Positions 51,569 to 64,000 of a DNA stretch of 64,000 nt are shown piece by piece. The number at the start of each line of letters is the position of its first letter. Positions within the stretch are counted from its first letter, which is position 1. Under the pieces are notes generated by a model that was not told the origin of the DNA, did no database searches, and saw nothing but the letters and a program-made list of their open reading frames with translations. Made by a program: the position numbers and the translations under genes. The stretch lies in the sequence record MH752840.1; one strand, 5' to 3'. This DNA is from Escherichia phage vB_EcoM-Pr121LW.

Positions 51569-51620
51569 TGATTTATGACGGAAAACCCATCACTATCAGT
51601 GAGTTGCGGTACAATTTTTC

Positions 51621-51800
51621 CAGTACTCGATCTACTTTTCATTTCATGGTTTGGATTTTCTGAAAATTTTTCTCGATAAATTTCTCAGTACTCGATCTGT
51701 TTTTCGTTTTCTGAATCGGATTTTCTGGAAATCGTTCCGGCTCTCGACCTGAAATTTTTGGGGACGAAATCGATTTTTCGTTTTCAGAAATGGATTTTTA
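51621..51800. repeat. AT-rich direct repeats with ~65-bp period (two good copies plus a degenerate third)
   Basis: CAGTACTCGATCT at 51621 and 51686; shared TTTTCnTTTTC…GGATTTTCTGRAAA tails. Confidence 0.7.
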
Positions 51801-51912: not shown

Positions 51913-51931
51913 TTGAATGATAATCATTCTC
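51913..51931. promoter_or_regulatory. Fur-box-like palindrome (15/19 to GATAATGATAATCATTATC)
   Basis: ttgAATGATAATCATTcTC; core AATGATAATCATT is a perfect 6-1-6 palindrome. Confidence 0.35.
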
Positions 51932-51946
51932 GTTTGCAGAATAACG

Positions 51947-51969
51947 GGCAGGCCCGGTGATTGTCTCCC
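51947..51969 (+). repeat. GC-rich 23-bp element GGCAGGCCCGGTGATTGTCTCCC (copy A)
   Basis: Inverted copy at 61604-61626 (22/23 identical); variant at 52088-52121. Confidence 0.8.
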
Positions 51970-52048: not shown

Positions 52049-52067
52049 GATAATGATAATCGTTCTC
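52049..52067. promoter_or_regulatory. Fur-box-like site (17/19 to GATAATGATAATCATTATC)
   Basis: GATAATGATAATCgTTcTC; followed 20 nt later by GC element variant, repeating the arrangement at 51913-51969. Confidence 0.4.
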
Positions 52068-52087: not shown

Positions 52088-52121
52088 CCGGTGGTTGTCT
52101 CCCCCGTCACCGGTGCCTGCC
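52088..52121. repeat. variant GC element CCGGTGGTTGTCTCCC…CACCGGTGCCTGCC (copy B)
   Basis: Carries both halves of the 23-bp element in rearranged, partly inverted form. Confidence 0.6.
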
Positions 52122-52146
52122 GTCCTTTCGATAGGTATATTGTGCC

Positions 52147-52285
52147 ACCTGGCGGGGCCGCTGTCAACACTTTTCAAAAAATTTTTCTAACCTGATGCGC
52201 TAACCGCTGCAACCTGGCGGGGCCAGCCTGGCAGTACCTAACTGACCAGGTAGGAGAGAATGAAGGCTTGTAAACCTGGTGGGCC
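52147..52285 (+). repeat. three direct copies of ACCTGG(C/T)GGGCC at 62-65 bp spacing
   Basis: Copies at 52147, 52212 and 52274; related copies at 52451 and 59321. Confidence 0.6.
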
Positions 52286-52326: not shown

Positions 52327-52503
52327 ATGAAAGGTAATATAATCCCCCTGGAAAATGTAGCTATTAATGACGCTGAGGCTATCGCCCTGGTTGAAAAGGC
52401 TATGGCGGGAGCGTTGGAACATAAAGAAGAGTACGAAAAAATGATGGTTAACCTGGCAGGGGCGGCGGCTGGAGAATTCTGCCCAAAAAATAATTTTACA
52501 TAA
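52327..52503 (+). CDS. small hypothetical protein (58 aa, not in ORF track)
   Basis: GAGGAGG SD 7 nt upstream of ATG; stop abuts next promoter. Confidence 0.45.
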   Translation: MKGNIIPLENVAINDAEAIALVEKAMAGALEHKEEYEKMMVNLAGAAAGEFCPKNNFT

Positions 52504-52506
52504 TGG

Positions 52507-52535
52507 TTGACAGCTCGGATAGTTCTTGTTATTCT
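52507..52535 (+). promoter_or_regulatory. sigma70-like promoter TTGACA-17-TATTCT
   Basis: -35 at 52507-52512, -10 at 52530-52535. Confidence 0.5.
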
Positions 52536-52587
52536 TATCCTCGCAAGGTGAACAACACCACACTAATTAACAAAGAGGATAAAAATC

Positions 52588-52785
52588 ATGAACGCATACG
52601 GAATCAAAGTACGTCGCAACACTCGCCAGGTGGTCACCGACCAAGTGATTTGCCGGGTGGATGTAACCATCAACAACGGGCAAGGCCTTTATAAATTTCG
52701 TCGCGGTCATAGCTATACCCTGCAACAGCTTAACCGTTGCGCCCTGACAAAAGGTCAGATCAACCACTGGTTTAATAAAAAATAA
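52588..52785 (+). CDS. small basic hypothetical protein
   Basis: 65 aa; SD/start context AAGAGGATAAAAATCATG. Confidence 0.5.
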   Translation: MNAYGIKVRRNTRQVVTDQVICRVDVTINNGQGLYKFRRGHSYTLQQLNRCALTKGQINHWFNKK

Positions 52786-52788
52786 ATA

Positions 52789-52817
52789 TTGACATATAGT
52801 CTGACACAAAATATACT
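52789..52817 (+). promoter_or_regulatory. sigma70 promoter TTGACA-17-TATACT
   Basis: -35 at 52789-52794, -10 at 52812-52817. Confidence 0.65.
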
Positions 52818-52849
52818 GAAATCACAAAAGACACTAAGAGGATAAAATC

Positions 52850-53248
52850 ATGAAAACCACAACCTTTAATTTTGATAATGCCGACTTCTCTTTTTCTGAT
52901 GTCAAGAACTGCCGCCGTGATCGTGGATTTTACAAGGCTTATAATCTGGTGGGCCTGGACGATGACAATAATTTGCACGAAGTAGCTGAGATCCGGTATT
53001 ATGCCGCCTCCAGCGGTAACACTCATTATTGCGTCTTTTGGATGCACGACAGCAAGAACAACAAGTACGGTTATACTGGTGGCAAGGCGAGCGGTCACGG
53101 TTATGATAAGGCCAATGCAGCACTTGAAAGCGCGTTAAATGCTATGGGGATCACTGCCAACGGCTGGATCTATGAAGATGAGTTTTTGTCAGCACTTGCT
53201 GCCCACCTGGGGTATAAAAAGCACATTGTGACATGCGCCCACGAATAA
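52850..53248 (+). CDS. hypothetical protein
   Basis: 132 aa; SD AAGAGGATAAAATCATG. Confidence 0.55.
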   Translation: MKTTTFNFDNADFSFSDVKNCRRDRGFYKAYNLVGLDDDNNLHEVAEIRYYAASSGNTHYCVFWMHDSKNNKYGYTGGKASGHGYDKANAALESALNAMGITANGWIYEDEFLSALAAHLGYKKHIVTCAHE

Positions 53249-53260
53249 AAAAAAAAAAAA
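53247..53260 (+). repeat. A14 homopolymer tract immediately upstream of promoter
   Basis: 14 consecutive A starting within stop codon of 52850..53248. Confidence 0.9.
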
Positions 53261-53263
53261 TTA

Positions 53264-53291
53264 TTGACACGCTGCAAAATTAAAGTAAACT
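53264..53291 (+). promoter_or_regulatory. sigma70-like promoter TTGACA-16-TAAACT
   Basis: -35 at 53264-53269, -10 at 53286-53291; A-tract upstream. Confidence 0.55.
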
Positions 53292-53301
53292 AGACACAAA
53301 A

Positions 53302-53320
53302 GGCGGGAATGTTTCCCGCC
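53302..53320 (+). promoter_or_regulatory. 5' leader hairpin GGCGGGA-N5-TCCCGCC
   Basis: 7-bp GC stem between -10 and SD; same stem recurs at 55813-55831. Confidence 0.6.
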
Positions 53321-53339
53321 AACACAAAGGAAAAAGATC

Positions 53340-53735
53340 ATGAATAAGAACGTACGCCGCATCATGAACGAACTGGCAAACGATGAAAAAATTATTGATA
53401 TGCATTTGGTCAACATTTGCCGCCGTTGTGTAACATATAACAACCGCGCCGCAAAAGCGCGTGAGATGAACGCAAAAGGCACCTTAAAGCCCTTTCAGGT
53501 GGTTGTAAAATCTATAGCTAATGCAGCAGGCCAGGCGCATGACCACAACAACGAGAGCACTAATATTGATCCGTCTTACGTAATGAAACGGATCCGGACT
53601 TGCAAGAATAAAGAGCAGGTGTATAACGTCATAGATTGGCTGGACTCCATGGGCGATGTGGTTTATAATAGGTTTTCTGCAGCTATCGAGATCCAGCTTG
53701 ACAGACTGGACGGGAAAGTACTGAAAACTTACTGA
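53340..53735 (+). CDS. hypothetical protein
   Basis: 131 aa. Confidence 0.55.
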   Translation: MNKNVRRIMNELANDEKIIDMHLVNICRRCVTYNNRAAKAREMNAKGTLKPFQVVVKSIANAAGQAHDHNNESTNIDPSYVMKRIRTCKNKEQVYNVIDWLDSMGDVVYNRFSAAIEIQLDRLDGKVLKTY

Positions 53736-53783
53736 GTTTATTTTTAGATGGCCTTGACTCCAGGGCCATCAATAAAGTAAACT
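53736..53783 (+). repeat. 45-bp repeated element copy 1: promoter with -35 TTGACT in loop of GATGGCC/GGCCATC inverted repeat
   Basis: TTTATTTTTAGATGGCCTTGACTCCAGGGCCATCAATAAAGTAAA identical at 54357 and 58075; -35 at 53754-53759, -10 TAAACT at 53778-53783. Confidence 0.75.
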
Positions 53784-53814
53784 AACCACAGTTGAGCGGA
53801 AAGGGGGCTTAAAG

Positions 53815-53934
53815 ATGAGTACTACACGCCAGCACACAAAGGTAACTATTATCGTTTGCATCATTGGTTACATCCTGGCGCAAATGTTGATGGGTAGCGC
53901 CAACGGTATCGCAAAATTTTTCTTAAACTTTTAA
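53815..53934 (+). CDS. small hydrophobic peptide (39 aa, not in ORF track)
   Basis: AAAGGGGG SD; predicted single TM helix IIVCIIGYILAQMLMG. Confidence 0.4.
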   Translation: MSTTRQHTKVTIIVCIIGYILAQMLMGSANGIAKFFLNF

Positions 53935-53962
53935 TTGACAAGCTAACTTAGATCAGTATACT
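53935..53962 (+). promoter_or_regulatory. sigma70 promoter TTGACA-16-TATACT
   Basis: -35 at 53935-53940, -10 at 53957-53962. Confidence 0.6.
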
Positions 53963-54012
53963 AAACACATAAACGGGAAAACTTCCCAGAACACACAAAA
54001 GGAGAAAACACC

Positions 54013-54354
54013 ATGACTACTATGACCGCCGCAGAAAAAGCTATGCAGATCGCTGCGCTGAAAAAACAGATCGCAGACCTTGAGAACAAGATCGATAACT
54101 TTGAAATCGACGAGGACAAGTACGACGAAAACTATGATGAATGGTTAGACGAGATCTACGGCGAAATTATGATCGGAAACATTTCTTTTCTTCCGTCGCG
54201 TATCCTCAAGGAGCTAGATCCTATCGCTTACCGCTGCGGATTTAGCGACTACATCGACAGCCTGGATATTGAGGACGATGAAGAATACCAGGAATTGCAG
54301 ACAGAGCTTGAAGAAGTGAAAGAAGAGCTTTCAGAGCTGGAAGAAAACGAGTAA
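54013..54354 (+). CDS. acidic coiled-coil hypothetical protein
   Basis: 113 aa; AAGGAG SD; Glu/Asp-rich C-terminus. Confidence 0.55.
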   Translation: MTTMTAAEKAMQIAALKKQIADLENKIDNFEIDEDKYDENYDEWLDEIYGEIMIGNISFLPSRILKELDPIAYRCGFSDYIDSLDIEDDEEYQELQTELEEVKEELSELEENE

Positions 54355-54402
54355 ATTTATTTTTAGATGGCCTTGACTCCAGGGCCATCAATAAAGTAAA
54401 CT
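54355..54402 (+). repeat. 45-bp repeated element copy 2 (promoter in inverted repeat)
   Basis: -35 TTGACT 54373-54378 between GATGGCC 54366-54372 and GGCCATC 54383-54389; -10 TAAACT 54397-54402. Confidence 0.75.
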
Positions 54403-54443
54403 TTACACTGTTAACACTGAACTAATACAGAGGAGTTAAAACC

Positions 54444-54689
54444 ATGGCCGCACTAATTACCAAATATTACGCCCCTACCAACACCAAAAGCGCCCGTATC
54501 ATGGTAAAAGGCTTCGGACGTAAAAAGGTTTACACCTGGGATTATTCCCTAGACATGGAAGACAACTACACCAACGCGATGACCGATTTTATTAACGAGC
54601 TGAATACGCGGATCTTAACAAATTATAAAATTACCGACATTGCTTATATAGGTGAAGGCGGGATCTGTTTTGTAGGCATTGTGAAATAG
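54444..54689 (+). CDS. hypothetical protein
   Basis: 81 aa; GAGGAG SD. Confidence 0.55.
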   Translation: MAALITKYYAPTNTKSARIMVKGFGRKKVYTWDYSLDMEDNYTNAMTDFINELNTRILTNYKITDIAYIGEGGICFVGIVK

Positions 54690-54737
54690 TTATTTTTTCG
54701 GTGGTCCTTGCTGCAGGGCCATCTATAAAGATAATTT
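54690..54737 (+). repeat. diverged copy of the 45-bp element with CTTGCT-17-GATAAT
   Basis: TTATTTTTTCGGTGGTCCTTGCTGCAGGGCCATCTATAAAGATAATTT; partial inverted repeat retained. Confidence 0.5.
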
Positions 54738-54764
54738 ACTAACACCATGAAAGGAGAAAGTAAC

Positions 54765-55118
54765 ATGATCAGCGGGGCTAGTTTTATTATTGGCGCTATT
54801 GCTACGGCTTTAATTGTAAACAAGATCCAGGATAAAAAGGAAAGAGGAAGTACCGCCCTTGCAGAATATCCATTTTGGACATTCAACGATAACGAAGATT
54901 ATATTGTAAAGTATAAAAATAAAGAAGGTTACCAAGTAACACCGCGACCGATCCCTGCTTACAAGATGCAGGAAACACTATACCGCCTGGAGGCGGGGGG
55001 CGCAAAAATTGTAGACTTTTGGGGATACGATCACACAGATCAGGAAGCTATAAAGCGACGTATCAGGGCTATTCAGGCCAATATTGAAGTTAGCAAGGGG
55101 GGAATATATGAAGATTAA
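54765..55118 (+). CDS. hypothetical protein with N-terminal hydrophobic segment
   Basis: ORF track 54747; ATG 54765 after AAAGGAG preferred. Confidence 0.5.
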   Translation: MISGASFIIGAIATALIVNKIQDKKERGSTALAEYPFWTFNDNEDYIVKYKNKEGYQVTPRPIPAYKMQETLYRLEAGGAKIVDFWGYDHTDQEAIKRRIRAIQANIEVSKGGIYED

Positions 55119-55305
55119 TTTTGAGAAAATTGTAAAGCGATCTCATGATTCCGAAGAGCTGCCGGAACGCCGCCAGCGTAACAATAAACTGAATAAGCCA
55201 AAAAGATTTGGGAAGATCTGGCGGAATCATTATGATCGTAAATTGCCGGGCCTCCTTTTGGAACGTGAACGGCAGGCGGAACGATACCGCCACAAAGGCA
55301 ACTAA
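55106..55305 (+). CDS. small basic hypothetical protein
   Basis: ORF track 55084; ATG 55106 after AAGGGGGG preferred; overlaps upstream stop. Confidence 0.45.
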
Positions 55306-55313
55306 CAACCAAC

Positions 55314-55342
55314 GCCCCGCCATAGTGCGGGGCTTTTTATTT
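55314..55342 (+). terminator. rho-independent terminator GCCCCGC-CATAGT-GCGGGGC plus T5
   Basis: 7-bp GC stem followed by TTTTTATTT. Confidence 0.75.
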
Positions 55343-55464
55343 CTATCCTACGAATAGCGCCCCTGGTTGGCCCTGTAAGCGCCAAAAAGCCCCCCCACCT
55401 ATGCAATCGCCCCCTTTAACCTGAAAACATCGCCCAGGGCCGTTTTATGGCGTTAAAAATATCA

Positions 55465-55492
55465 TTGACATCGTCAACAGGTTAGCTATACT
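55465..55492 (+). promoter_or_regulatory. sigma70 promoter TTGACA-16-TATACT
   Basis: -35 at 55465-55470, -10 at 55487-55492. Confidence 0.6.
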
Positions 55493-55524
55493 AACCACAT
55501 CAAAGAGAGAAAGGAGTAAACGCC

Positions 55525-55785
55525 ATGCGTAAATTAAAAAATTTTGATAAAGTTGATGTTATCCTGAATAATTTCTACTACTGCAACAACAAGGCTATTT
55601 GGTGGCGTGATAGTTCCACCGATAAAGTCAAGGCGCGCTTTCTTCAGGGGCATTGGCAAGGCCGCCCAGTGATTAAAATCATGGGGCAATTGGTAGCGTT
55701 TAAAAATTGCCGCCGTGTTGATGACGTTGAGGAGATTTTAAACATTTTGCGCCACAATAATTTAAAAAATAGTGTTGACAAGTAA
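55525..55785 (+). CDS. hypothetical protein
   Basis: 86 aa; AAGGAG SD. Confidence 0.55.
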   Translation: MRKLKNFDKVDVILNNFYYCNNKAIWWRDSSTDKVKARFLQGHWQGRPVIKIMGQLVAFKNCRRVDDVEEILNILRHNNLKNSVDK

Positions 55786-55802
55786 ATCTCAATAAGTATA
55801 AT
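55775..55802 (+). promoter_or_regulatory. sigma70 promoter TTGACA-16-TATAAT
   Basis: -35 at 55775-55780 overlaps upstream stop; -10 at 55797-55802; leader hairpin at 55813-55831. Confidence 0.65.
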
Positions 55803-55859
55803 TAAACACACAGGCGGGAAAACTTCCCGCCACCAACAAAGAAAACAGGAGAAAATATC

Positions 55860-56483
55860 ATGACCACCGTTAACATTACCACAGGTTACAATTTATCTTT
55901 CGACGTGCTGACCGACGAACAAAAAGAAAAAGCCGTTGAAATGGTCCGCGAAAGAGAAGAACACAGCGGGGATAACTTTTTTGCAGAAAGTGTAATTGAA
56001 TACTATAAAGAATATGTTTTTCCAGAGTACGGGCTTGAAGATACAGATGTACATTGGTCCGGCTTTTGGTGCCAGGGCGACGGCGCGTCAATTAGCGCTG
56101 AAAATGTAAACTTAGAAAAATTCTTGCGTAAAGTCAAGTCTTTGACTAAATTCCGCTCAATTCGTCACTTGTTCGGCACAATGCACGATGGCGAGCTATC
56201 CGCAAGCGTTGAGCGTATCCCGTTTAGCCATTATCACCACGAAAACACAATAGGCGGGTGCATCGATACCAATTGGCTAGACCTGACCACCAAGCAAGAG
56301 GATAAAGTTGAAGAGCTGGAAGAGCTGATCACCGAGACGGTACGGGAGCTATCCCGCAAGGTTTACGTAGACCTGGAGCAAGCCTATCTTGAACAATTCA
56401 CTACCGAAAACCTGATCGGCCTTATCGAGGCCAATGATTGGCGGTTTGATGTGGATGAATATGGCGAGATGACTTTTTCATAA
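55860..56483 (+). CDS. acidic hypothetical protein (207 aa)
   Basis: CAGGAG SD; Asp/Glu-rich. Confidence 0.55.
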   Translation: MTTVNITTGYNLSFDVLTDEQKEKAVEMVREREEHSGDNFFAESVIEYYKEYVFPEYGLEDTDVHWSGFWCQGDGASISAENVNLEKFLRKVKSLTKFRSIRHLFGTMHDGELSASVERIPFSHYHHENTIGGCIDTNWLDLTTKQEDKVEELEELITETVRELSRKVYVDLEQAYLEQFTTENLIGLIEANDWRFDVDEYGEMTFS

Positions 56484-56491
56484 ATAAAGTG

Positions 56492-56519
56492 TTGCAATAA
56501 CCTAAAAACCTGCTATATT
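56492..56519 (+). promoter_or_regulatory. sigma70-like promoter TTGCAA-16-TATATT
   Basis: -35 at 56492-56497, -10 at 56514-56519; leader hairpin G6CAA…TTGC7 at 56529-56551. Confidence 0.5.
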
Positions 56520-56576
56520 AAAACTCAAGGGGGGCAAGACGTTTGCCCCCCCACACAAAACAAAGAGGAAAACATC

Positions 56577-56957
56577 ATGAAAAACACTACTAAAGCTATT
56601 GACACCGTCATGTTTAACCTGGTTACCTTTCGCGAGGATATGAAAGATCTTCCACGTGAAACAGTGTGCGATCACATTGAAAACTATCGCAAACTAATCA
56701 AAGAGTTGCCTTTAAAACGTGACCAGTATGCGGCTAACGCTATGCTCAACGCCATGATCAAAAAGATGATTCAGTGTGATTTAACCATGGCCTATGATTA
56801 TGCAGGTGGTCGTTTTGCAGTATACAATCAGCCCGTGCCTGGTATGGGCACCACCGAAGAATTGCACGCGCTCAATCTAAAACAAGACGTGTGGGATAGT
56901 ATGCCCCGCGTGGTGGTGTGGGCAGAAAGCGGAAAGATTTACGGCGATAATTTTTAA
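56577..56957 (+). CDS. hypothetical protein
   Basis: 126 aa; AAGAGGAAAACATCATG context. Confidence 0.55.
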   Translation: MKNTTKAIDTVMFNLVTFREDMKDLPRETVCDHIENYRKLIKELPLKRDQYAANAMLNAMIKKMIQCDLTMAYDYAGGRFAVYNQPVPGMGTTEELHALNLKQDVWDSMPRVVVWAESGKIYGDNF

Positions 56958-56966
56958 TCAGGTAAC

Positions 56967-56992
56967 AGGCGGCATATTTGCCGCCTTATTGT
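56967..56992 (+). terminator. candidate terminator AGGCGGCA-TATT-TGCCGCCT
   Basis: 8-bp stem, then TATTGTT (weak T-run). Confidence 0.45.
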
Positions 56993-57021
56993 TAAACAGA
57001 ACTGCAAAAGAGGTACATAGA

Positions 57022-57393
57022 ATGGAATTTATTATTTTGGCTGTATTGGTTGCCTTGTTTAACGCCTGGATCGCTGGCAAGATAGGTAGATCCGCCTTTT
57101 TATGGTTTATTATATCTATTTTCCTGGGGGTGGTTGCAACTATTGTATTGGTTATCCTTGCAATTGTTGACAAGGGGAATAATAGAAAGGGTAAAGTATT
57201 TTCAGACCTGTACGACGCTCAAACGTTTGTCAACGCCTATTATAGTGATCTTCCAGTCTCCCTACGCTGCAGCCTGGCACAACAGGTTTTTGATGAGGCT
57301 AAAACCAGAGATCAAGCCCACGAGATATGTTTAACTGAGGCGGATCGCCTATTTGAGAGGAATAGAAAATATGTGGGCCAACCGTTTAAATAA
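57022..57393 (+). CDS. small membrane protein (two predicted TM helices)
   Basis: ORF track 56989; ATG 57022 after AAGAGG preferred. Confidence 0.5.
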   Translation: MEFIILAVLVALFNAWIAGKIGRSAFLWFIISIFLGVVATIVLVILAIVDKGNNRKGKVFSDLYDAQTFVNAYYSDLPVSLRCSLAQQVFDEAKTRDQAHEICLTEADRLFERNRKYVGQPFK

Positions 57394-57503
57394 TGCCACG
57401 TTAATTAATCCCTTTAGTGAAGATTTGAAGCCAGCCGCCTGGCGTGACGGATTCAATAACGAACGCTTTATTTTCAGGCCTGATCTTGAGGAATTTTATA
57501 ACA

Positions 57504-57629
57504 ATGGATCGAACAACAGCGGAGATAATTTTTCTTGTGGTGTGCGTCGTGATAGGACTCCTGGGGGCCATTGTAAACCACGTCACTACTACCAGAAGGA
57601 AAGGGGGAGACGATGACAACCAAGGATAA
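57504..57629 (+). CDS. small membrane peptide (41 aa)
   Basis: ATG 57504 after GAGGA; TM helix IIFLVVCVVIGLLGAIV then charged tail; conflicts with alternative frame 57371..57616. Confidence 0.35.
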   Translation: MDRTTAEIIFLVVCVVIGLLGAIVNHVTTTRRKGGDDDNQG

Positions 57630-57732
57630 GCCCAGCACCGATAAGGTGCGCCGGGTTATGGTATGGCTGGAGATCATCGCCCTTGAAATATTGTTAGGCG
57701 TAGGGATGTACTTTATCGCTGTAAGTAACTAA
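57613..57732 (+). CDS. small membrane peptide (39 aa, not in ORF track)
   Basis: AAAGGGGGAG SD; TM helix VMVWLEIIALEILLGVGMYFIAV; followed by terminator. Confidence 0.4.
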   Translation: MTTKDKPSTDKVRRVMVWLEIIALEILLGVGMYFIAVSN

Positions 57733-57737
57733 GAACG

Positions 57738-57766
57738 GCCCCCGATCATGGGGGCTTATCTTTTTA
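57738..57766 (+). terminator. rho-independent terminator GCCCCC-GATCAT-GGGGGC plus T-run
   Basis: 6-bp GC stem followed by TTATCTTTTT. Confidence 0.75.
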
Positions 57767-57787
57767 AAAAATTTTTCTTCCAGGGTG

Positions 57788-57815
57788 TTGCAATCCGGTC
57801 CGGAATGTGGATAAT
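57788..57815 (+). promoter_or_regulatory. sigma70-like promoter TTGCAA-16-GATAAT
   Basis: -35 at 57788-57793, -10 at 57810-57815. Confidence 0.5.
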
Positions 57816-57871
57816 GACAATCAACGGGGAGCTAATCCCCACCAACACAAAAACCAGAAAGGAGAAACAAA

Positions 57872-58072
57872 ATGAGCAACAATATCCGCGTTATTAACTT
57901 CAAAAAAGAAGAAAAAATTGCCGTGCTGATTGACGGTCAAGAAATCTTCAAGGGCGACTATGAAGATCATCAAACGGCGATTAGTATCACTCGCGTGATT
58001 GGTTACCATAATTTTTACCCCCAAGGCGCTGAGGCAGCGATTAAACGAATCAAAGAGATTGTAGGCCTGTAA
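57872..58072 (+). CDS. hypothetical protein
   Basis: 66 aa; AAAGGAG SD. Confidence 0.55.
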   Translation: MSNNIRVINFKKEEKIAVLIDGQEIFKGDYEDHQTAISITRVIGYHNFYPQGAEAAIKRIKEIVGL

Positions 58073-58073
58073 A

Positions 58074-58121
58074 ATTTATTTTTAGATGGCCTTGACTCCA
58101 GGGCCATCAATAAAGTAAATT
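58074..58121 (+). repeat. 45-bp repeated element copy 3 (promoter in inverted repeat)
   Basis: -35 TTGACT 58092-58097 between GATGGCC 58085-58091 and GGCCATC 58102-58108; -10 TAAATT 58116-58121. Confidence 0.75.
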
Positions 58122-58165
58122 TAAACCCTGTTAAAATACCACGCAGTTAACAAGGAGTGATAGAC

Positions 58166-58465
58166 ATGTTTATCCAGGCTAATAATCTTTATTTCTTTGA
58201 TGGTCAGATCGTAGATGGTGTGGAAGTGGAGATCACCGGGTGCCCTGGCGGTCAGGCTATGACTTTTCGGAATAATGCCTTTAATGATTCTCATATCGTT
58301 ATGAGAATGGAAGTTACGAAGCTGGATGACAAGAAAACACTTATTGACTATTCTGTGAAAGATCATCCAGACTACCACATGATCCATGGTGATTTGTGCA
58401 CTGTTGACCGTGACAAGGTGGGCGGCATCGTGATCGCTATTGTGAACGATGTTTTCTCAAACTAA
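58166..58465 (+). CDS. hypothetical protein
   Basis: ORF track 58157; ATG 58166 after AAGGAG preferred. Confidence 0.5.
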   Translation: MFIQANNLYFFDGQIVDGVEVEITGCPGGQAMTFRNNAFNDSHIVMRMEVTKLDDKKTLIDYSVKDHPDYHMIHGDLCTVDRDKVGGIVIAIVNDVFSN

Positions 58466-58482
58466 TTTCAACAGGTGATTTT

Positions 58483-58833
58483 ATGAAAGTTAAATTATAT
58501 TACCTTAATGAGCTTAACCCCCTTGCCCAGGTCCGCGCCCTAGCTAATACCTTGATTTGTGAGAAATCTGTATATTGTGTTGAGCTTAACGCTATGCGTG
58601 AACGTCTCAAAGGTGGTTACTTTAACATCCATGCTGCAATCAACGGCCTGAATATGGAATTTATCCGTTTACGTAACAGCCGCCGGAATCTGGCAAGAAT
58701 GGAACAAGATCCGGCCCACCTTCGTAAGCTGGTTATTGAAAATCATCTGATGTTTAATGCCGAGGGTGATTATTACCATTTTCACCGCAAACGCTGGTAC
58801 CGTGGCGGCAATACAGGCAAGAATGCAAAATAA
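58483..58833 (+). CDS. hypothetical basic protein
   Basis: 116 aa. Confidence 0.5.
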   Translation: MKVKLYYLNELNPLAQVRALANTLICEKSVYCVELNAMRERLKGGYFNIHAAINGLNMEFIRLRNSRRNLARMEQDPAHLRKLVIENHLMFNAEGDYYHFHRKRWYRGGNTGKNAK

Positions 58834-58870
58834 GGCCCCAGGCAGGGCCTACAGCGACCTAAACACTAGC

Positions 58871-58902
58871 AGGCTATGCAATCGCATAGCCTTTATTGTT
58901 TT
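58871..58902 (+). terminator. rho-independent terminator AGGCTATGC-AATC-GCATAGCCT plus T-run
   Basis: 9-bp stem followed by TTATTGTTTT; a second hairpin AGGCCC-CAGGCA-GGGCCT lies at 58833-58850. Confidence 0.7.
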
Positions 58903-58949
58903 GACGTTACAACGGCCCTAAGGCGCTTAAAAAATTTTTAAAGAAGTAC

Positions 58950-58977
58950 TTGCATCATTCCCGACAATATGGATAAT
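58950..58977 (+). promoter_or_regulatory. sigma70-like promoter TTGCAT-16-GATAAT
   Basis: -35 at 58950-58955, -10 at 58972-58977. Confidence 0.5.
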
Positions 58978-59035
58978 AAGAGTTGTCGAGGGGGGAGGCC
59001 CCCAATCATTGACCAGATAGATAGGAGTTAAAATC

Positions 59036-59320
59036 ATGGCTATTGTTACCGCTGGCGATGTAGTAGAAATGGAAGCAAAATACTTAAAAGAGGGTATGCA
59101 TATCCTACGGAATGATCAAGAGTTATTATTAACGATGGTTGACTATAATCCCGGCCAGGATTATCCAAGCATCGACTACTTTTTTGAGTATGTTAATGAA
59201 GAGTTGAAAGAGGATGAGGCCTACTGCGGTGAGTTCTGCAACTTCTTTTGTCCTGATGAGGTTGTAAAGGTTATTTATCAACCTGGCGTAGCTTTCCCGC
59301 TGCACGCTATCAATAAATAA
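59036..59320 (+). CDS. acidic hypothetical protein
   Basis: 94 aa; TAGGAG SD. Confidence 0.55.
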   Translation: MAIVTAGDVVEMEAKYLKEGMHILRNDQELLLTMVDYNPGQDYPSIDYFFEYVNEELKEDEAYCGEFCNFFCPDEVVKVIYQPGVAFPLHAINK

Positions 59321-59384
59321 ACCTGGCGGGGCCGAAAAGGCCCCTACAGCATAAAATTATGAAAATAAAGAGAGGTAAATCATC

Positions 59385-59618
59385 ATGATGGAACAAATTA
59401 AACGCACCGAGGCTATTAATGGCAATGTGATCTATTTTGTTAGCAAAAACGAAAAAGGCGTACCATATGCGGCGGTAATAGTACAACCTGACGGCGATTA
59501 TTGGTTTACTGTGTACGGCGCTTATTCTTTTGGGCGTCCAGTGCATGATAAAATTTTGAAAGTAGCGAACCCTACCGGGAAGAATATCACAGCAGAAAAA
59601 TTTTTTGAAAATAGTTGA
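59385..59618 (+). CDS. hypothetical protein
   Basis: 77 aa; AGAGAGG SD; ACCTGGCGGGGCC motif and GGGGCC…GGCCCC hairpin in leader. Confidence 0.5.
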   Translation: MMEQIKRTEAINGNVIYFVSKNEKGVPYAAVIVQPDGDYWFTVYGAYSFGRPVHDKILKVANPTGKNITAEKFFENS

Positions 59619-59642
59619 CATGACCATATAAAACTGTAATAT
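59615..59642 (+). promoter_or_regulatory. sigma70 promoter TTGACA-16-TAATAT
   Basis: -35 at 59615-59620 overlaps upstream stop; -10 at 59637-59642. Confidence 0.55.
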
Positions 59643-59693
59643 ATAAATCAAAGGGAGCAACAAGCCCCACCAACCACAAAGAGGATAAAAATC

Positions 59694-59873
59694 ATGGCTA
59701 TTATTGCAAAGACCGAGATCGTAGGCTTAGATTCTATTCTCCTCGCATATGAGGAAGCTATAGAAATGTATGTGGTTTCCTATGGTGAGTATATCCGTGA
59801 ATATGAATCTATTGATCTAGCTTTTGAATGTTATATTCGCCAGGTTAATAAAGCGTACGATGATTATCGTTAA
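59694..59873 (+). CDS. small acidic hypothetical protein (59 aa, not in ORF track)
   Basis: AAGAGGATAAAAATCATG start context identical to other array genes. Confidence 0.45.
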   Translation: MAIIAKTEIVGLDSILLAYEEAIEMYVVSYGEYIREYESIDLAFECYIRQVNKAYDDYR

Positions 59874-59965
59874 AATAGTTTGACAACAAACAACCATCTA
59901 ACAAAGCATAATACATAAGGTGGTAGAATGATCCGCCACCCCGGAACAAAGAAGAGGTAAACATC

Positions 59966-60211
59966 ATGAAAAGCAATAAAGGTTATAACGGTTACAAAAA
60001 CAAAACTCATTGGAATGTAAGCCTTTGGATTAATAACGATGAGTCATTGTACCGGTTGGCCCAAGGCTTTATTAACGCTAATGCTAATCGTAATGATGCG
60101 GCGCGGGATATGATGCTTTTTCTGGAGCTAACCGGACAAGATAAGACCCCGGACGGCTTCAAGTACAGCACTACGGCGATCCGTGCCGCGATGGTTGGAA
60201 TGAAACACTAA
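59966..60211 (+). CDS. hypothetical protein
   Basis: 81 aa; AAGAGG SD; leader hairpin GGTGG…CCACC. Confidence 0.55.
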   Translation: MKSNKGYNGYKNKTHWNVSLWINNDESLYRLAQGFINANANRNDAARDMMLFLELTGQDKTPDGFKYSTTAIRAAMVGMKH

Positions 60212-60288
60212 AAGCACATAGCCGCCTTACCCTGGGGCTGTGGTAGCGGCCCCATGAATAAGGTTACTAACAGAAGAGAATAAACACC

Positions 60289-60393
60289 ATGAAACAGAAA
60301 TTAATCGATGCAGTGATCTTGATTATTGCCCTGGGTATTGGCCTGATTGCAACCATGTCTAATATGATCTTGTCTTCCAACGGTATCGGGTGA
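60289..60393 (+). CDS. small hydrophobic peptide (34 aa, not in ORF track)
   Basis: TM-like AVILIIALGIGLIATM; weak SD GAAGAG. Confidence 0.3.
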   Translation: MKQKLIDAVILIIALGIGLIATMSNMILSSNGIG

Positions 60394-60402
60394 GGTTGGC
60401 AA

Positions 60403-60618
60403 ATGATCACTAACAAAACGGGCAAAACAGAATTTTTACGCAACTTACAGATCGGCAAGCCTGAGATCTGGTACTGCACTAAAACACCGCGTGACGAAAT
60501 GAAAGACTTCACCGCCACGCTGCAACGGGTAAAGATATCTATCACGCAGAAAAAGGCCTTACTAGTGGTGGAAGGGGAGATCCCCCAAACCGTTGTTATA
60601 GTTGAGCGTACCGCATAG
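60403..60618 (+). CDS. hypothetical protein
   Basis: 71 aa. Confidence 0.45.
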   Translation: MITNKTGKTEFLRNLQIGKPEIWYCTKTPRDEMKDFTATLQRVKISITQKKALLVVEGEIPQTVVIVERTA

Positions 60619-60709
60619 TTTAATTTATACCGATACCCGAAAATTAACCAACAAATCATAAACAGGCGGTTACCGCCGCCTTAAACGTAGCAGAAAGAGG
60701 ATAGGCACA

Positions 60710-61000
60710 ATGAAAAAGATGATCGCAGTGGTTGCCCTGGTTGTTGGACTTAGTGCGCCTGCAATGGCTAATGAGCTGGCAAAAGAGGTTAATCTAACGG
60801 ATATTCATGCCGTCAATCGAATCGGGGTTACTTATCGCTTATGCCTTGCCACTAAAACTTTTAGTGACGGTACAACAGAGTACTACGGATTCGAGGGTAT
60901 CCGGTGCGGTGAACTTGCTCGCGACCTTAAGGAAGATCCAGACCTGGAAGATTTGCCGATGACGGTAAACGGTAAAGCTTACGTAAACCGCCAACAATAA
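60710..61000 (+). CDS. secreted/periplasmic small protein
   Basis: 96 aa; signal peptide MKKMIAVVALVVGLSAPAMA; AAGAGGATAGG SD. Confidence 0.55.
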   Translation: MKKMIAVVALVVGLSAPAMANELAKEVNLTDIHAVNRIGVTYRLCLATKTFSDGTTEYYGFEGIRCGELARDLKEDPDLEDLPMTVNGKAYVNRQQ

Positions 61001-61016
61001 GTAAGGGAGATGTAAA

Positions 61017-61208
61017 ATGAATACTGAACAAGTTAGAAAGGTATTGGCGGTACTGCGTTATCATAATCATAGAAAGGTCATAGACGATCCTGATTATGTT
61101 GATTCAAGCCTGGAAGAGGATACACTACAAGCTATAAGTAACATGCACGAATTGCTAAAGCGCATGACAGAGAAAAACCGACCTGACTACATAGGGGGTA
61201 AAATATGA
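61017..61208 (+). CDS. hypothetical protein
   Basis: 63 aa; AAGGGAG SD. Confidence 0.5.
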   Translation: MNTEQVRKVLAVLRYHNHRKVIDDPDYVDSSLEEDTLQAISNMHELLKRMTEKNRPDYIGGKI

Positions 61209-61516
61209 TCGCTATTACGCCAACCGTTTTAGATTGGTATCGGCAACGTATAGCGCCACCGCTGGCTATCTTCAAAGATGCGGAAGCAAAACAACGCCGG
61301 ATCTCAATACATGAGATCATCAACCTTAACGCTGGAGGCACACCATACCGCCCAGGACCTGGCCGTGAGATGGACAATACATTGGCGATCCTGAAGATAC
61401 GCCGTAAACGGTCCTCCCTTACGCTGGATTCATTACACACAATGCAGTCTCCGTTCCAGGTGACTGGGAAACGGATCGCCAGGTCCTGGACAAAGGCCAA
61501 TGACCGGACCGTATAA
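61205..61516 (+). CDS. hypothetical protein
   Basis: 103 aa; ATGA overlap with upstream gene. Confidence 0.5.
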   Translation: MIAITPTVLDWYRQRIAPPLAIFKDAEAKQRRISIHEIINLNAGGTPYRPGPGREMDNTLAILKIRRKRSSLTLDSLHTMQSPFQVTGKRIARSWTKANDRTV

Positions 61517-61603
61517 ATAAAAAGTGTTTTGGTACTGATTTTGGGGTTGACTTGTTCGGCCCCTTTTGCTATTCTTATTAAACGGGCGGCACTTGGGAAC
61601 AGG

Positions 61604-61626
61604 GGGAGACAATCACCAGGCCTGCC
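61604..61626 (-). repeat. GC-rich 23-bp element, inverted copy C (reverse complement GGCAGGCCTGGTGATTGTCTCCC)
   Basis: 22/23 identical to copy A at 51947-51969 in opposite orientation. Confidence 0.8.
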
Positions 61627-61651
61627 TGTCATATAAGAACTATAAAAACCG

Positions 61652-61680
61652 TTGACATCTGCCATGGGGTGGGGTAACAT
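61652..61680 (+). promoter_or_regulatory. sigma70-like promoter TTGACA-17-TAACAT
   Basis: -35 at 61652-61657, -10 at 61675-61680; leader hairpin GGGCA…TGCCC at 61691-61704. Confidence 0.55.
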
Positions 61681-61733
61681 TATCTTGAAGGGGCAAAGGT
61701 GCCCACACAACAACCAGAAGAGAGGAAAACACT

Positions 61734-62006
61734 ATGTCAAGCTGGATTAATCAAGAAGTCGAATCACGTTTTAATGCTATTTGGGATCTCATCGAAAAAG
61801 AAGACGGCACATCAAGCCCCTACCTCAACAATTTGGAATTCCATTTTGTGGAAGCGATGAACGCAGAACATGATCACGAAGGTGGTGCGGACGAGTTCGC
61901 TAAAGGGTATGGCTTCAACAATGCCAATGAAATGATCGAGGCGGTTGTGCTCCAGGCTGAGGAAGATTATCAATTAAAAACGCTTGAATTCTGCCGCCGT
62001 AAGTAA
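61734..62006 (+). CDS. acidic hypothetical protein
   Basis: 90 aa; AGAGAGGAAAACACTATG context. Confidence 0.55.
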   Translation: MSSWINQEVESRFNAIWDLIEKEDGTSSPYLNNLEFHFVEAMNAEHDHEGGADEFAKGYGFNNANEMIEAVVLQAEEDYQLKTLEFCRRK

Positions 62007-62066
62007 TAAGATAATGACACGGGCCGGGAGGCCCACTAATCAGAACCACACAAAGAGGTAAACATC

Positions 62067-62330
62067 ATGAAACGTCTTGATCAGCTTAAACTAGTTCAGT
62101 ACATGGCCTACAAAGTTCTTGAAGTCCAAAAAGGTAGCAAAAAAGAGGTTTGCGAGAAAGCATATAAGATCTTTACCCGTAAAAAAGATGATTGGATGTT
62201 ACGCCAGACTAAAAAAGCCGATATCTTGGGGTACCTGGAAGAAGAGATCCGACTTGAAGAGCAAGAAGAGATCCGTCGCAGTGAGGCAGATTATCAGGCA
62301 GCTTGGGAAAACTGGATGAGTAACAAATAA
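62067..62330 (+). CDS. hypothetical protein (Lys/Glu-rich)
   Basis: 87 aa; AAAGAGG SD. Confidence 0.55.
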   Translation: MKRLDQLKLVQYMAYKVLEVQKGSKKEVCEKAYKIFTRKKDDWMLRQTKKADILGYLEEEIRLEEQEEIRRSEADYQAAWENWMSNK

Positions 62331-62397
62331 TACAACAAGTTACATGGTCAGGGGGCAATAAAGCCCCTTGATCGCATAAAAATTATGCCATCCTTGG

Positions 62398-62426
62398 TTG
62401 ACATGGATCGGCAGTTTTGCTATATT
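62398..62426 (+). promoter_or_regulatory. sigma70 promoter TTGACA-17-TATATT
   Basis: -35 at 62398-62403, -10 at 62421-62426. Confidence 0.6.
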
Positions 62427-62475
62427 CTTTTTTGAAGGGAAGTTGTAAGAAAATTAACTAAGAGGTAAAAACACC

Positions 62476-62895
62476 ATGAACATCAAATCTAATAATCCGG
62501 CATATAGCTTTGATAACGCTTTTTGTCACGGTCCGGCGGCGAAAGGATTCGAAATCGATGGTAAACTAATTATTGTCAATGTTGACGGGGAAGAGGTTGC
62601 AGTATATCCGGTGGCAGACGTAAAAAGCCGTTTGCAATGCCGCATGGATGTTACCGCCTATCAGCTTGATCCGGTCCGCATAGTTGCCCTGGTCCTGGAA
62701 GAAGAAATTAAAGCCATGCACCATAGCAACAGGTTTATTGGTGACGCACAGGATAATATGAAGGTATGCCGCCATAAAGTTAATGAAGTGCTTAAAGAAT
62801 ATGGCTTTAAAGATCTGATGATCAAACGTGAGGAAAAATTCCGCTACCGTAACGACCTGGCAAATCGAATCTATGAAATATACGAATCATTATAA
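62476..62895 (+). CDS. hypothetical protein
   Basis: 139 aa; AAGAGG SD. Confidence 0.55.
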   Translation: MNIKSNNPAYSFDNAFCHGPAAKGFEIDGKLIIVNVDGEEVAVYPVADVKSRLQCRMDVTAYQLDPVRIVALVLEEEIKAMHHSNRFIGDAQDNMKVCRHKVNEVLKEYGFKDLMIKREEKFRYRNDLANRIYEIYESL

Positions 62896-62913
62896 TTTCT
62901 TAACTAAACTATC

Positions 62914-62942
62914 AGGGGCTTTAAAAGGCCCCTTTCTTTTTG
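62914..62942 (+). terminator. rho-independent terminator AGGGGC…GCCCCT plus T-run
   Basis: 6-bp stem followed by TTCTTTTTG; last terminator before noncoding end region. Confidence 0.7.
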
Positions 62943-63549
62943 TCTGTATTTCTCCTACCACAAACGGCCCCACCTGGCAAGTGGAATAATTGACTAGCCA
63001 TCAATCCCACACACTGTACAAATATACATGTAAAATAGCTATTGCATAATCTTTCATTGTGTGGTAGCAGGGCCATTTTTACACGTTTTTCCTTCCAAAA
63101 TTGCACGTAATGCAGCTATTGCACAAAATTTAACCTGATGCATATCTTCAGTGTCCTGTCAACAACTAAAAATCTTTATAAGTCATACACTTACACAACC
63201 ACAAAAGCGTGTTCTACGTGAAAAATCGGGTATAACTATAGCCACTAAATTCCAGAATTCACGTAGCGTCACCATTCTATAGTCTGCTAAGCATTTATTC
63301 CAACCATAGAATAACGGAATAGTCAATACCTGCATAAAATAATTATTCGTTTAAACTGCATAACATAAATCAGCCAGGGTGTCAACATTTTTCGTAAACA
63401 GTCAGAAATTGTCACGGTTAGTTATCATAAACAGAGAAATATTTAGTTGTCTAATGTTTACTGTACATTACTATATTGACTGGAATCATTAGATGACTAA
63501 GAGAAAGATAAGAAATAATTAACAATACAACTATTTTATCCGTAACAAT

Positions 63550-63743
63550 AAGGCAACTATGCAAACGAATGGCATGGCGCGACGGAGTCGCGACATAATA
63601 TAAAAGCAGTAACCATCACCCCCGTGATAGTTTGTCTGCAAACTATTAATCAGATCATAGTTGCCTTGTATTTAGTTAATCATGACATAACAAGCAAGGC
63701 AACTATAGATCTGCTAATAGTTGCCCTGCTTTTATATTATGTC
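63550..63743. repeat. palindrome/iteron cluster: four copies of AAGGCAACTAT in alternating orientation, 18-bp inverted repeat pair, CGCGAC-GGA-GTCGCG palindrome
   Basis: Sites at 63550, 63657(rc), 63696, 63717(rc); GACATAATATAAAAGCAG at 63592-63609 and its reverse complement at 63726-63743. Confidence 0.8.
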
Positions 63744-63836
63744 ATATATTATTAACCTGTTAATTGTCAGCTTATTGGCTGTTAGCTTGTCAATTGTTAA
63801 CTTGCTAATTGTTTTCATGCAAACGAATGTCATGGC
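63559..63836. repeat. 20-bp direct repeat ATGCAAACGAATG(G/T)CATGGC (two copies)
   Basis: Copies at 63559-63578 and 63817-63836. Confidence 0.8.
63757..63815. repeat. short tandem AT-rich repeats (TTAATTGTCAGC / TTGTCAATTGTTAAC / TTGCTAATTGTT)
   Basis: Four imperfect 12-15 bp units in tandem. Confidence 0.6.
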
Positions 63837-63849
63837 TTATCATCTTTGT

Positions 63850-63895
63850 GTAAACTGTCAAGGTGTAAACTATCCAGGCGTAAACAGTCTATGCA
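63850..63895. repeat. three tandem GTAAAC-containing ~15-bp units
   Basis: GTAAACTGTCAAGG / GTAAACTATCCAGG / GTAAACAGTCTATGCAGG. Confidence 0.6.
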
Positions 63896-64000
63896 GGAAC
63901 AATCTATACGTGAACAGTGAAACATGAAATAATAACGATTGTTATTGTGTCATATTGTGCTGCAGTGTGTTATGTTGTGCCCAGTGTGTCCAGTATGTCA

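Follow-up and report, generated by a model that had tools for sequence, protein, structure and literature searches.

Why should a lytic phage place many of some thirty small genes behind leaders that repeat the same succession of promoter, hairpin and ribosome-binding site? The question is raised by positions 52327-62942 of a 64,000-nucleotide (nt) stretch, hereafter the window, of Escherichia phage vB_EcoM-Pr121LW (sequence record MH752840.1). A first-pass annotation, made from the letters alone, had described this block as an array of about 30 small genes in a "J-tailed phage", built from repeated cassettes of promoter, GC hairpin, CA-rich leader and Shine-Dalgarno (SD) sequence. We found exactly 30 genes and a cassette that is real, less uniform than described, and present with its hairpin in ten leaders, where the hairpin lies just downstream of the −10 box. 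The source phage is a Vequintavirus (an rV5-like myovirus), and the expression "J-tailed" is accounted for by a lambda-J-type tail-tip protein encoded at 1064-4480 of the window. The block is 96-97% identical to its best relatives, the phages EI-SP-GF, isim, LL12 and Murica. A megablast search with 52327-62942 matched 301 phage records, 61 of which span at least 80% of the region, and the conservation of the genes in at least 61 records leaves standing a proposal that the first-pass annotation would have given up had the small open reading frames (ORFs) lacked conservation in related phages. The genes, named g1-g30, all lie on the plus strand within 52327-62895 and encode products of 34-207 amino acids (aa); their start codons are the following.

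g1-g10, plus strand: 52327, 52588, 52850, 53340, 53815, 54013, 54444, 54765, 55108, 55525
g11-g20, plus strand: 55860, 56577, 57022, 57371, 57613, 57872, 58166, 58483, 59036, 59385
g21-g30, plus strand: 59694, 59966, 60289, 60403, 60710, 61017, 61205, 61734, 62067, 62476

The layout that defines the block, here called type A, runs in the order promoter, GC hairpin, A+C-rich spacer, SD sequence, ATG. Its ten members are listed below, with the spacer length given between the two promoter boxes and, where noted, the distance from the −10 box to the hairpin.

53264..53342, plus strand: g4 cassette, TTGACA-16-TAAACT, 10 nt, hairpin 53302-53320 (GGCGGGAA/TTCCCGCC), AACACAAAGG spacer, ATG 53340; leader fold −14.6 kcal/mol, z=−4.3
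53935..54015, plus strand: g6 cassette, TTGACA-16-TATACT, hairpin 53974-53988 (z=−2.1), CA-rich spacer, ATG 54013
55775..55862, plus strand: g11 cassette, TTGACA-16-TATAAT (12/12), 10 nt, hairpin 55813-55831 (z=−4.6), ACCAACAAAG spacer, ATG 55860
56492..56579, plus strand: g12 cassette, TTGCAA-16-TATATT, 9 nt, hairpin 56529-56551 (G6CAA/TTGC6), CACACAAAAC spacer, ATG 56577; leader fold −18.7 kcal/mol, z=−3.7
57788..57874, plus strand: g16 cassette, TTGCAA-16-GATAAT, 10 nt, hairpin 57826-57840 (z=−2.7), ACCAACACAAAAACC spacer, ATG 57872
58950..59038, plus strand: weak g19 cassette, TTGCAT-16-GATAAT (8/12), 12 nt, hairpin 58990-59003, ATG 59036; the weakest type-A member (z=−0.7), with a less CA-rich spacer
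59615..59696, plus strand: g21 cassette, TTGACA-16-TAATAT, 10 nt, hairpin 59653-59668 (one bulge), ACCAACCACAA spacer, AAGAGGATAAAAATC, ATG 59694; the −35 box overlaps the g20 stop codon
59880..59968, plus strand: irregular g22 cassette, TTGACA, 21-nt spacer, CATAAT, hairpin 59919-59940, ATG 59966; promoter activity doubtful because the spacing is non-canonical
61652..61736, plus strand: g28 cassette, TTGACA-17-TAACAT, 10 nt, hairpin 61691-61704, ACACAACAACC spacer, ATG 61734
61984..62069, plus strand: weak g29 cassette, TTGAAT-17-TAAGAT (8/12), 8 nt, hairpin 62021-62034 (z=−2.2), CA-rich spacer, ATG 62067

The two copies of GGCGGGA-N5-TCCCGCC quoted in the first-pass annotation, at 53302-53320 and 55813-55831, are present as given. 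Across the ten leaders, the −10 box is separated from the stem by 6-12 nt (9-12 nt in 8 of 10), and the distance from the stem to ATG is more variable (19-32 nt). With the transcription start placed 7 nt beyond the end of the −10 box, a prediction that could err by about 2 nt, the first paired nucleotide is number 4-7 of the predicted transcript in 10 of the 14 promoter-bearing leaders. The SD sequence and ATG are unpaired in most of the minimum-energy folds, and the leader-fold z-scores range from −0.7 to −4.6. To these leaders we added those of the corresponding block of phage phi92 (see below) and compared the pooled block promoters with 153 promoter-like sites elsewhere: the first 32 transcribed nt had a median folding energy of −6.8 kcal/mol in the blocks (n=29) versus −2.8 kcal/mol elsewhere (n=153; Mann-Whitney p=3e-5), and the first paired nucleotide was at 4-7 in 16 of 19 leaders of this pooled comparison.

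The remaining parts of the leader are similarly distinctive. The CA-rich tract reported by the first-pass annotation is borne out by the spacer between hairpin and SD, which consists of 87% A+C compared to 52.5% for the background in the block (p=6e-19). The start context, described as a near-invariant AAGAGGATAAAATCATG, turned out to be looser, with exact AAGAGGATAAAA occurring just 3 times; what the genes share is A at −3 (25 of 30) and C at −1 (17 of 30). A strict detector that demands a promoter, a proximal hairpin and an SD-ATG found 5 sites in the block; outside it, the remaining 53 kb of the plus strand gave 2, and the minus strand gave none. Promoters in the replication region at 27-51 kb, where genes for a helicase, a primase-helicase and a DNA polymerase are located (31-43 kb of the window), have another style of leader, with AGGAGAC-type ribosome sites.

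We interpret the block as a set of immediate-early modules that depend on the host RNA polymerase and in which a 5'-terminal hairpin stabilizes and insulates the mRNA, the modules being crossover points as well; we assign this interpretation a probability of roughly 0.55. Under this model, a strong sigma-70 promoter, often lying over the previous stop codon, would start the transcript about 7 nt after the −10 box, such that the RNA would open with 2-6 unpaired A/C-rich nt followed by a stable GC hairpin, G-rich in its 5' arm and C-rich in its 3' arm. This 5'-terminal hairpin would limit the access of RppH and of the 5'-end sensor of RNase E and would insulate the ribosome-binding site from upstream sequence, while the A/C-rich spacer, having few potential pairing partners, would keep the SD and ATG single-stranded and permit a rapid start of translation. 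The expected outcome is a multitude of short, stable, well-translated early messages, each independently transcribed. The modules are alike and could therefore act as homologous crossover points at which single genes are gained, lost or swapped, as in the promoter-early-stem-loop (PeSL) cassettes of T4-type phages.

An intrinsic terminator combines a hairpin with a U-tract, and the type-A hairpins lack the latter: the 8 nt after the hairpin contain 0 T in 8 of 10 leaders, versus 5-7 T at six canonical terminators of the block (p=6.5e-4). The leader hairpins were thus rejected as intrinsic terminators. The terminators identified in the block include the following.

55314..55333, plus strand: intrinsic terminator after g9, 7 T in the next 8 nt
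56967..56986, plus strand: intrinsic terminator after g12, rV5 t184
57737..57756, plus strand: intrinsic terminator after g15, rV5 t181
58871..58892, plus strand: intrinsic terminator after g18, rV5 t177
62914..62933, plus strand: intrinsic terminator closing the block, rV5 t164

The block contains a second kind of cassette, type B, that the first-pass annotation had missed and in which the hairpin is formed around the −35 box. It is represented by four copies of a 57-nt element, directly 3' of stop codons, in which a T-rich tract precedes a long hairpin, TTGACT is part of the hairpin loop, and TAAACT serves as the −10 box. Also missed was a composite of terminator and promoter that precedes g28.

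53737..53793, plus strand: type B upstream of g5, stem GATGGCC/GGCCATC, 18-nt spacer to TAAACT; −20.2 kcal/mol, z=−5.5
54356..54412, plus strand: type B upstream of g7, 93% identical to the 53737 copy
54690..54746, plus strand: type B upstream of g8, diverged, 65% identical to the 53737 copy
58075..58131, plus strand: type B upstream of g17, 86% identical to the 53737 copy
61543..61575, plus strand: terminator-promoter composite, hairpin GGGG..CCCC with TTGACT in the loop, TTTTGC, TATTCT; no ORF before the g28 promoter; a terminator in the Murica annotation

On both strands, type B reads as T-rich tract, hairpin, A-rich tract. The Murica annotation lists the type-B elements as terminators, an assignment that we reject, given that no U-tail is found 3' of the stem on either strand.

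The geometry of type B bears on another explanation of the leader hairpins, namely, that they function as in PeSLs, to stop or attenuate read-through from upstream or, after processing, to form the protective 3' end of the upstream gene's message, with their position being incidental to compaction. The type-B hairpins and the 61543 element overlap promoters as in phage RB49, where PeSL hairpins of the same G-run/C-run type cut downstream lacZ expression as strongly as rrnB T1 (PMC2839356). The hairpins upstream of g20, g23 and g25, which have no promoter, also agree with such a role. What this explanation does not accommodate is the lack of a U-tract in a block where canonical terminators are available, the fact that an efficiently terminating leader hairpin would end the transcript of its own gene as well, and the tight spacing between the −10 box and the hairpin (mostly 9-12 nt) across phages of 39-71% GC, for which a terminator has no need. 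We consider a PeSL-like role possible, albeit on the unlikely side; it would be compatible with the 5'-stabilizer role that we favor.

The promoter-less hairpins just mentioned are GC hairpins at 59328-59344 (g20), 60233-60254 (g23) and 60664-60681 (g25). All three precede a leader with an SD sequence, and they may be degraded cassettes or intercistronic stabilizers.

If the hairpins act as RNA, selection is expected to preserve pairing rather than sequence, and the comparative data point in this direction. Within this one genome, stems vary between cassettes from 5 to 10 bp and loops from 3 to 9 nt, and in other genera the orthologous genes carry, at the same position, a hairpin of another sequence (e.g. 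g12 compared to phi92 gp227). Among seven Vequintaviruses, the majority of hairpin substitutions fall in loops, and the stem changes include a C-to-T change that yields a U·G wobble and an A-to-G change that repairs the g21 bulge. In the g12 hairpin, both the G-run and the C-run vary in length among the relatives; in the g29 hairpin, only the loop varies. In all hairpins the G-rich arm comes first. Interior G·T or T·G pairs outnumber A·C or C·A pairs by 11 to 3, a count made on related copies that are not statistically independent. The same G·U versus A·C comparison among matches from the IMG/VR database (see below) was uninformative, the AA of the fixed arm often lying within the loop. A MAFFT alignment of 35 cassettes analyzed with RNAalifold gave no consensus structure, because stems of unlike length and loop size drop out of register; because there was thus no consensus on which to build a covariance model, we relied on promoter-anchored folding and shuffled sequences.

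These observations are also relevant to the possibility that the inverted repeats are operators in double-stranded DNA, at about +4 to +25, through which a dimeric regulator of the phage or the host shuts the early promoters later in infection. A position immediately 3' of the −10 box is common for operators, GGCGGGAA-N3-TTCCCGCC is repeated in several cassettes and in several genera, and the type-B palindrome flanks the −35 box. However, the stems, stem lengths and loops are too diverse in one genome to suit a single regulator that recognizes sequence, the transcribed-sense side invariably has the G-rich arm, and the excess of G·T over A·C pairs, together with changes among relatives that keep the pairing and not the sequence, is more readily accommodated by RNA. 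Together, these points speak for an RNA structure tied to one strand rather than for a DNA operator recognized by its sequence, which we hold to be very improbable.

The layout is not peculiar to Vequintaviruses. It appears in a more regular form in Phapecoctavirus ESCO37, Justusliebigvirus phi92 and the jumbo Asteriusvirus A4, where the typical form is TTGACA-N17-TAaAaT-gtatcacata-GGGCGG(G/C)AA-loop-TT(C/G)CCGC(C/T)C-A/C-rich-AGAGA...ATC-ATG. In phi92, the strict detector found 10 sites in the block at 138.3-146.4 kb, which adjoins the right terminal repeat, versus 5 in the rest of both strands. In Aeromonas phage TS9 (Plateaulakevirus), the layout stands upstream of a homologue of the DUF7249 gene (g22 of our block), whereas a T7-like phage with that gene is devoid of the layout. 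We additionally scanned IMG/VR with a pattern consisting of a promoter, 8-12 nt of any sequence and GGCGGGAA, which yielded at least 118 distinct matches. Single matches of this kind occur at about chance level, and we relied only on contigs with multiple copies and on the excess of complementary arms: a complementary 3' arm was present in 40 of the 118 matches listed compared to 3.75% expected by chance, and in 35 of these 40 an SD sequence and a start codon came next, at a distance of up to about 33 nt (mostly 13-33 nt). The loci among the matches listed range from 39 to 71% GC, with four copies on some contigs.

This distribution invites a broader hypothesis, that phage immediate-early mRNAs are widely marked by a promoter-linked 5'-terminal GC hairpin at about +4, a signature not described so far that extends over at least five myovirus genera and over metagenomic phages of high GC, and that may serve as a cap-like shield or a 'self' mark against 5'-end-dependent decay, phage-induced destruction of host mRNA or RNA-targeting defenses. 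We regard this generalization as doubtful; if true, it would provide a portable rule for finding early genes in uncharacterized phages.

The block is also a site of gene turnover. In a comparison of six Vequintaviruses, g1, g7, the 5' part of g11, g18, g21-27, g22, g27 and g30 were found to be present or absent or replaced, and pieces of the block are common to Phapecoctavirus, phi92, jumbo phages and others. The clearest case is phage 241Ecol014PP, where g7 is missing and the junction is a chimera whose left half comes from the type-B element upstream of g7 and whose right half comes from the one upstream of g8, with the crossover located inside CAGGGCCATC.ATAAAG. In the same phage, the replacement of g21-27 has its left breakpoint at the g21 −35 box; the g30 deletion is bounded by two similar hairpins. 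Other breakpoints are at gene ends, outside the cassettes (g18, g27, g1 and the 56287 end of the g11 deletion).

Taken to the extreme, these events could mean that the cassettes are mainly modules of recombination or mobility, with repetition promoting shuffling and the hairpin acting as a hotspot that has no role in expression. The g7, g30 and g21-27 events agree with this scenario, as do the sharing of single genes, such as g22, among unrelated phages and the mini-circles formed between PeSLs in RB49 and phi1 (PMC2839356). Nevertheless, the breakpoints away from cassettes are not explained by it, neighboring type-A hairpins are too unlike each other to provide long homology, and each genus has its own flavor of cassette around shared genes, so that the cassettes do not simply travel with the genes. 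Moreover, the geometry of promoter, SD and start codon implies selection for expression. We therefore consider recombination as the main function improbable, and see crossovers as one facet of the immediate-early modules proposed above.

The first-pass annotation held that almost every gene has its own promoter, which is correct for about 60% of the genes. A sigma-70-like promoter with a score of at least 9/12 lies upstream of 14 of the 30 genes; g8, g19 and g29 have weaker promoters (8/12), and that of g22 is irregular. The 12 genes without any promoter (g1, g9, g13-15, g18, g20, g23-27) are mostly members of coupled clusters (g8-g9, g13-g15, g17-g18, g23-g24, g25-g27). Many of these signals have been noted before: Table S4 of the rV5 genome paper (Kropinski 2013, PMC3606486) predicts the promoters P164, P168, P174, P185, P186, P192, P194, P195 and P195A and four terminators (t164, t177, t181, t184) in this region. 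Leader hairpins, the CA-rich spacer, type-B cassettes and a link to PeSLs are not mentioned in that table or in the searched main text of the paper. Four cassettes consist of a promoter with little or no hairpin.

52507..52590, plus strand: g2, TTGACA-17-TATTCT, weak 4-bp hairpin, CA-rich leader, AAGAGGATAAAAATC before ATG
52789..52852, plus strand: g3, TTGACA-17-TATACT, short unstructured CA-rich leader
55465..55527, plus strand: g10, TTGACA-16-TATACT, leader hairpin absent
62398..62478, plus strand: g30, TTGACA-17-TATATT with TG extension, leader hairpin absent

These promoter-only cassettes are among several considerations that weigh against immediate-early modules with a protective 5' hairpin. 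The promoters of g2, g3, g10 and g30 are strong, implying that the hairpin is not obligatory, and for the hairpins upstream of g20, g23 and g25, which are accompanied by neither a recognizable promoter nor a U-tract, an intercistronic role fits better. The transcription start is assumed from the −10 box; with an error of about 2 nt, a given hairpin could be preceded by at least 4 unpaired 5' nt, which would weaken protection, and even the 3-6 unpaired nt predicted are at the edge of the presumed protective range. Furthermore, RNase E is able to scan past ordinary stem-loops (PMC9943677), and the benefit therefore depends on the hairpin being truly terminal. The lacZ reduction caused by the similar RB49 hairpin is terminator-like (PMC2839356), the excess of wobble pairs comes from related copies, and early timing is deduced from promoter type only.

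The proteins encoded in the block offer few clues as to function. The block is orthologous to Murica genes 178-151, which are annotated as hypothetical throughout. All 30 proteins, including the 34-39 aa products of g5, g15 and g23, have a full-length match to a PHROG family, in agreement with the gene count of the first-pass annotation, and all these families are labeled 'unknown function'. Pfam matches among the 30 products were limited to g9 (T7 gp1.1 family) and g22 (DUF7249), and searches of PDB sequences with g3, g11 and g30 gave no match. The portrayal of the products as mostly acidic or membrane-anchored was too strong, with 8 acidic, 10 basic and about 6 hydrophobic or signal-bearing proteins among the 30.

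Two genes can be placed in Pfam families. The g9 product (55108-55305) is a homologue of the T7 gene 1.1 protein (Pfam Phage_1_1, E=9.5e-11); the start of g9 overlaps the end of g8, and a strong terminator lies 3' of g9. The g22 product (59966-60211; DUF7249, phrog_871) shows 47-100% identity across 229 phage records, and its carriers are very diverse, including Phapecoctavirus, jumbo Asteriusvirus, Aeromonas, Vibrio and Ralstonia phages, and T7-like Enterobacter phages. Judging from this distribution, g22 is a widely exchanged, probably early gene without an assigned function.

Immediate-early genes are the likeliest candidates for host takeover and anti-defense, and to view the block as a home of such candidates, as the first-pass annotation did, is a reasonable guess. 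If the hairpins truly form 5' ends, they would amount to a sequence rule by which immediate-early genes could be located in large lytic phages, among them therapeutic phages of the rV5-like and phi92-like groups. The layout would also suggest compact parts, composed of a promoter and a 5' untranslated region, for strong, insulated expression, and it marks sites of gene-cassette exchange between phage genomes.

Several features at the edges of the block deserve separate mention. A 700-bp non-coding stretch just upstream contains a candidate Fur box, GATAATGATAATCGTTCTC, at 52049-52067, which departs from the 19-bp consensus at 2 positions (chance expectation 0.04), and a weaker copy near 51917-51937; the exact GATAATGATAATCGTTCTC is not present in the corresponding loci of six relatives. 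An iron-responsive site in a lytic phage, if true, would be unusual. A minus-strand promoter at 52139-52188, TTGACA-17-(TG)CACAAT, is preceded by an A/T-rich tract, AGAAAAATTTTTTGAAAA, that also precedes the plus-strand g21 promoter (59594-59620). This promoter is directed outward, at the candidate Fur box and two minus-strand copies of the motif described next, which suggests divergent transcription at the left edge.

That motif, GGGAGACAAYCACC, occurs three times, at 51956-51969 (minus), 52090-52103 (minus) and 61604-61617 (plus), compared to 0.04 expected by chance. Arranged as inverted repeats at a distance of 9.6 kb, the copies enclose most of the block. Every copy follows a promoter-like site and lacks an ORF, and, in a by-eye reading of the three-copy alignment, the copies apparently lie in hairpin loops with differing stems. 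Their places and orientations are conserved in most of six Vequintavirus loci, and the motif is absent from the phi92, ESCO37 and A4 loci. With folding z-scores of only −1.3 to −1.8 and no Rfam match, GGGAGACAAYCACC may represent either a small RNA or a site bound by a protein. In the window as a whole, Rfam gave no match at gathering thresholds and two sub-threshold, chance-level hits at E<=1, and no tRNAs were found.

Farther upstream, at 51613-51798, a T-rich repeat (AATTTTTCCAGTACTCGATCT...GGATTTT) of about 47-60 nt is present in three tandem, non-coding copies 65-74 nt apart. On the other side of the block, the region 62950-64000 is AT-rich (35% GC). It has several inverted repeats (for example 63592-63609 with 63726-63743, 18 nt and perfect, and 63543-63561 with 63656-63674) and no convincing ORF. 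Its counterpart on the rV5 map is the 'non-coding' box, and in isim it lies near the record start. By analogy with the equivalent phi92 block, which borders the right terminal repeat, the block may be close to a genome end.

How, then, does this layout relate to known systems? The closest are the PeSLs of the T4-type phages RB49/phi1, PST/T4 and nt-1/KVP40, which combine sigma-70 promoters with G-run/C-run hairpins and are situated in hyperplastic regions, with the stem-loop acting as a terminator and recombination between cassettes shuffling genes (Arbiol 2010, PMC2839356; Comeau 2014, PMC4122927). The PeSL hairpin lies between the −35 and −10 boxes or over the −10 box in RB49 and phi1 (PMC2839356) and just upstream of the promoter in PST and nt-1 (PMC4122927). 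A direct check of the RB49 hyperplastic region showed hairpins in the promoter spacer or over the −10 box and CA-rich leaders with a stereotyped SD-ATG (acacacataccgaaacgaa...aggagaatcaaaATG). The likeness to PeSLs drawn by the first-pass annotation is therefore substantial: near-consensus sigma-70 promoters in short gaps between small ORFan genes, G-run/loop/C-run hairpins, a CA-rich leader with a stereotyped SD-ATG, and clustering in a variable region where the g7 indel has its crossover in a cassette. It does not extend to the position of the hairpin. A hairpin over the promoter, as in RB49, is confined to the 61543 element and the four type-B cassettes, whereas the ten type-A hairpins, like those of phi92, ESCO37, A4 and TS9, are 3' of the −10 box and are therefore part of the gene's own predicted transcript; the PeSL hairpin lies outside the transcript of its gene. 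Furthermore, the carriers are not T4-like phages; the layout would carry the PeSL idea beyond the T4-type phages.

The other relevant precedent is bacterial. Emory and coworkers and Bouvet and Belasco, both in 1992, are said to have shown that 5'-terminal stem-loops, in the ompA and papA leaders, stabilize E. coli mRNA. A review that cites the classic stem-loop papers likewise describes protection of E. coli mRNAs by 5'-terminal base pairing, and reports that Bacillus subtilis RppH requires at least two (2-3) unpaired 5' nucleotides and prefers single-stranded 5' ends (PMC3997798). The type-A leaders resemble the ompA and papA stabilizers in having a stable hairpin a few nt from the predicted 5' end, an open ribosome-binding site, and conservation of structure over sequence. 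Such a stabilizer has its hairpin starting no more than about 4 nt from the 5' end, compared to a first paired nucleotide predicted at 4-7 in the type-A leaders. The two also differ in that ompA and papA are single cellular genes with a measured effect on half-life, whereas here the hairpin belongs to a repeated, promoter-linked phage module and its effect is predicted. Our searches of the literature found no transcript maps of Vequintaviruses or phi92-like phages and no earlier account of their leader hairpins; for rV5 itself, Table S4 of the genome paper predicts the same promoters (P164-P195A) and terminators in the orthologous region (PMC3606486). Taken together, these comparisons indicate that the layout is real, non-random and evolutionarily widespread within an already sequenced and annotated phage family, and that, judged by its sequence features, it is a variant of the PeSL kind.

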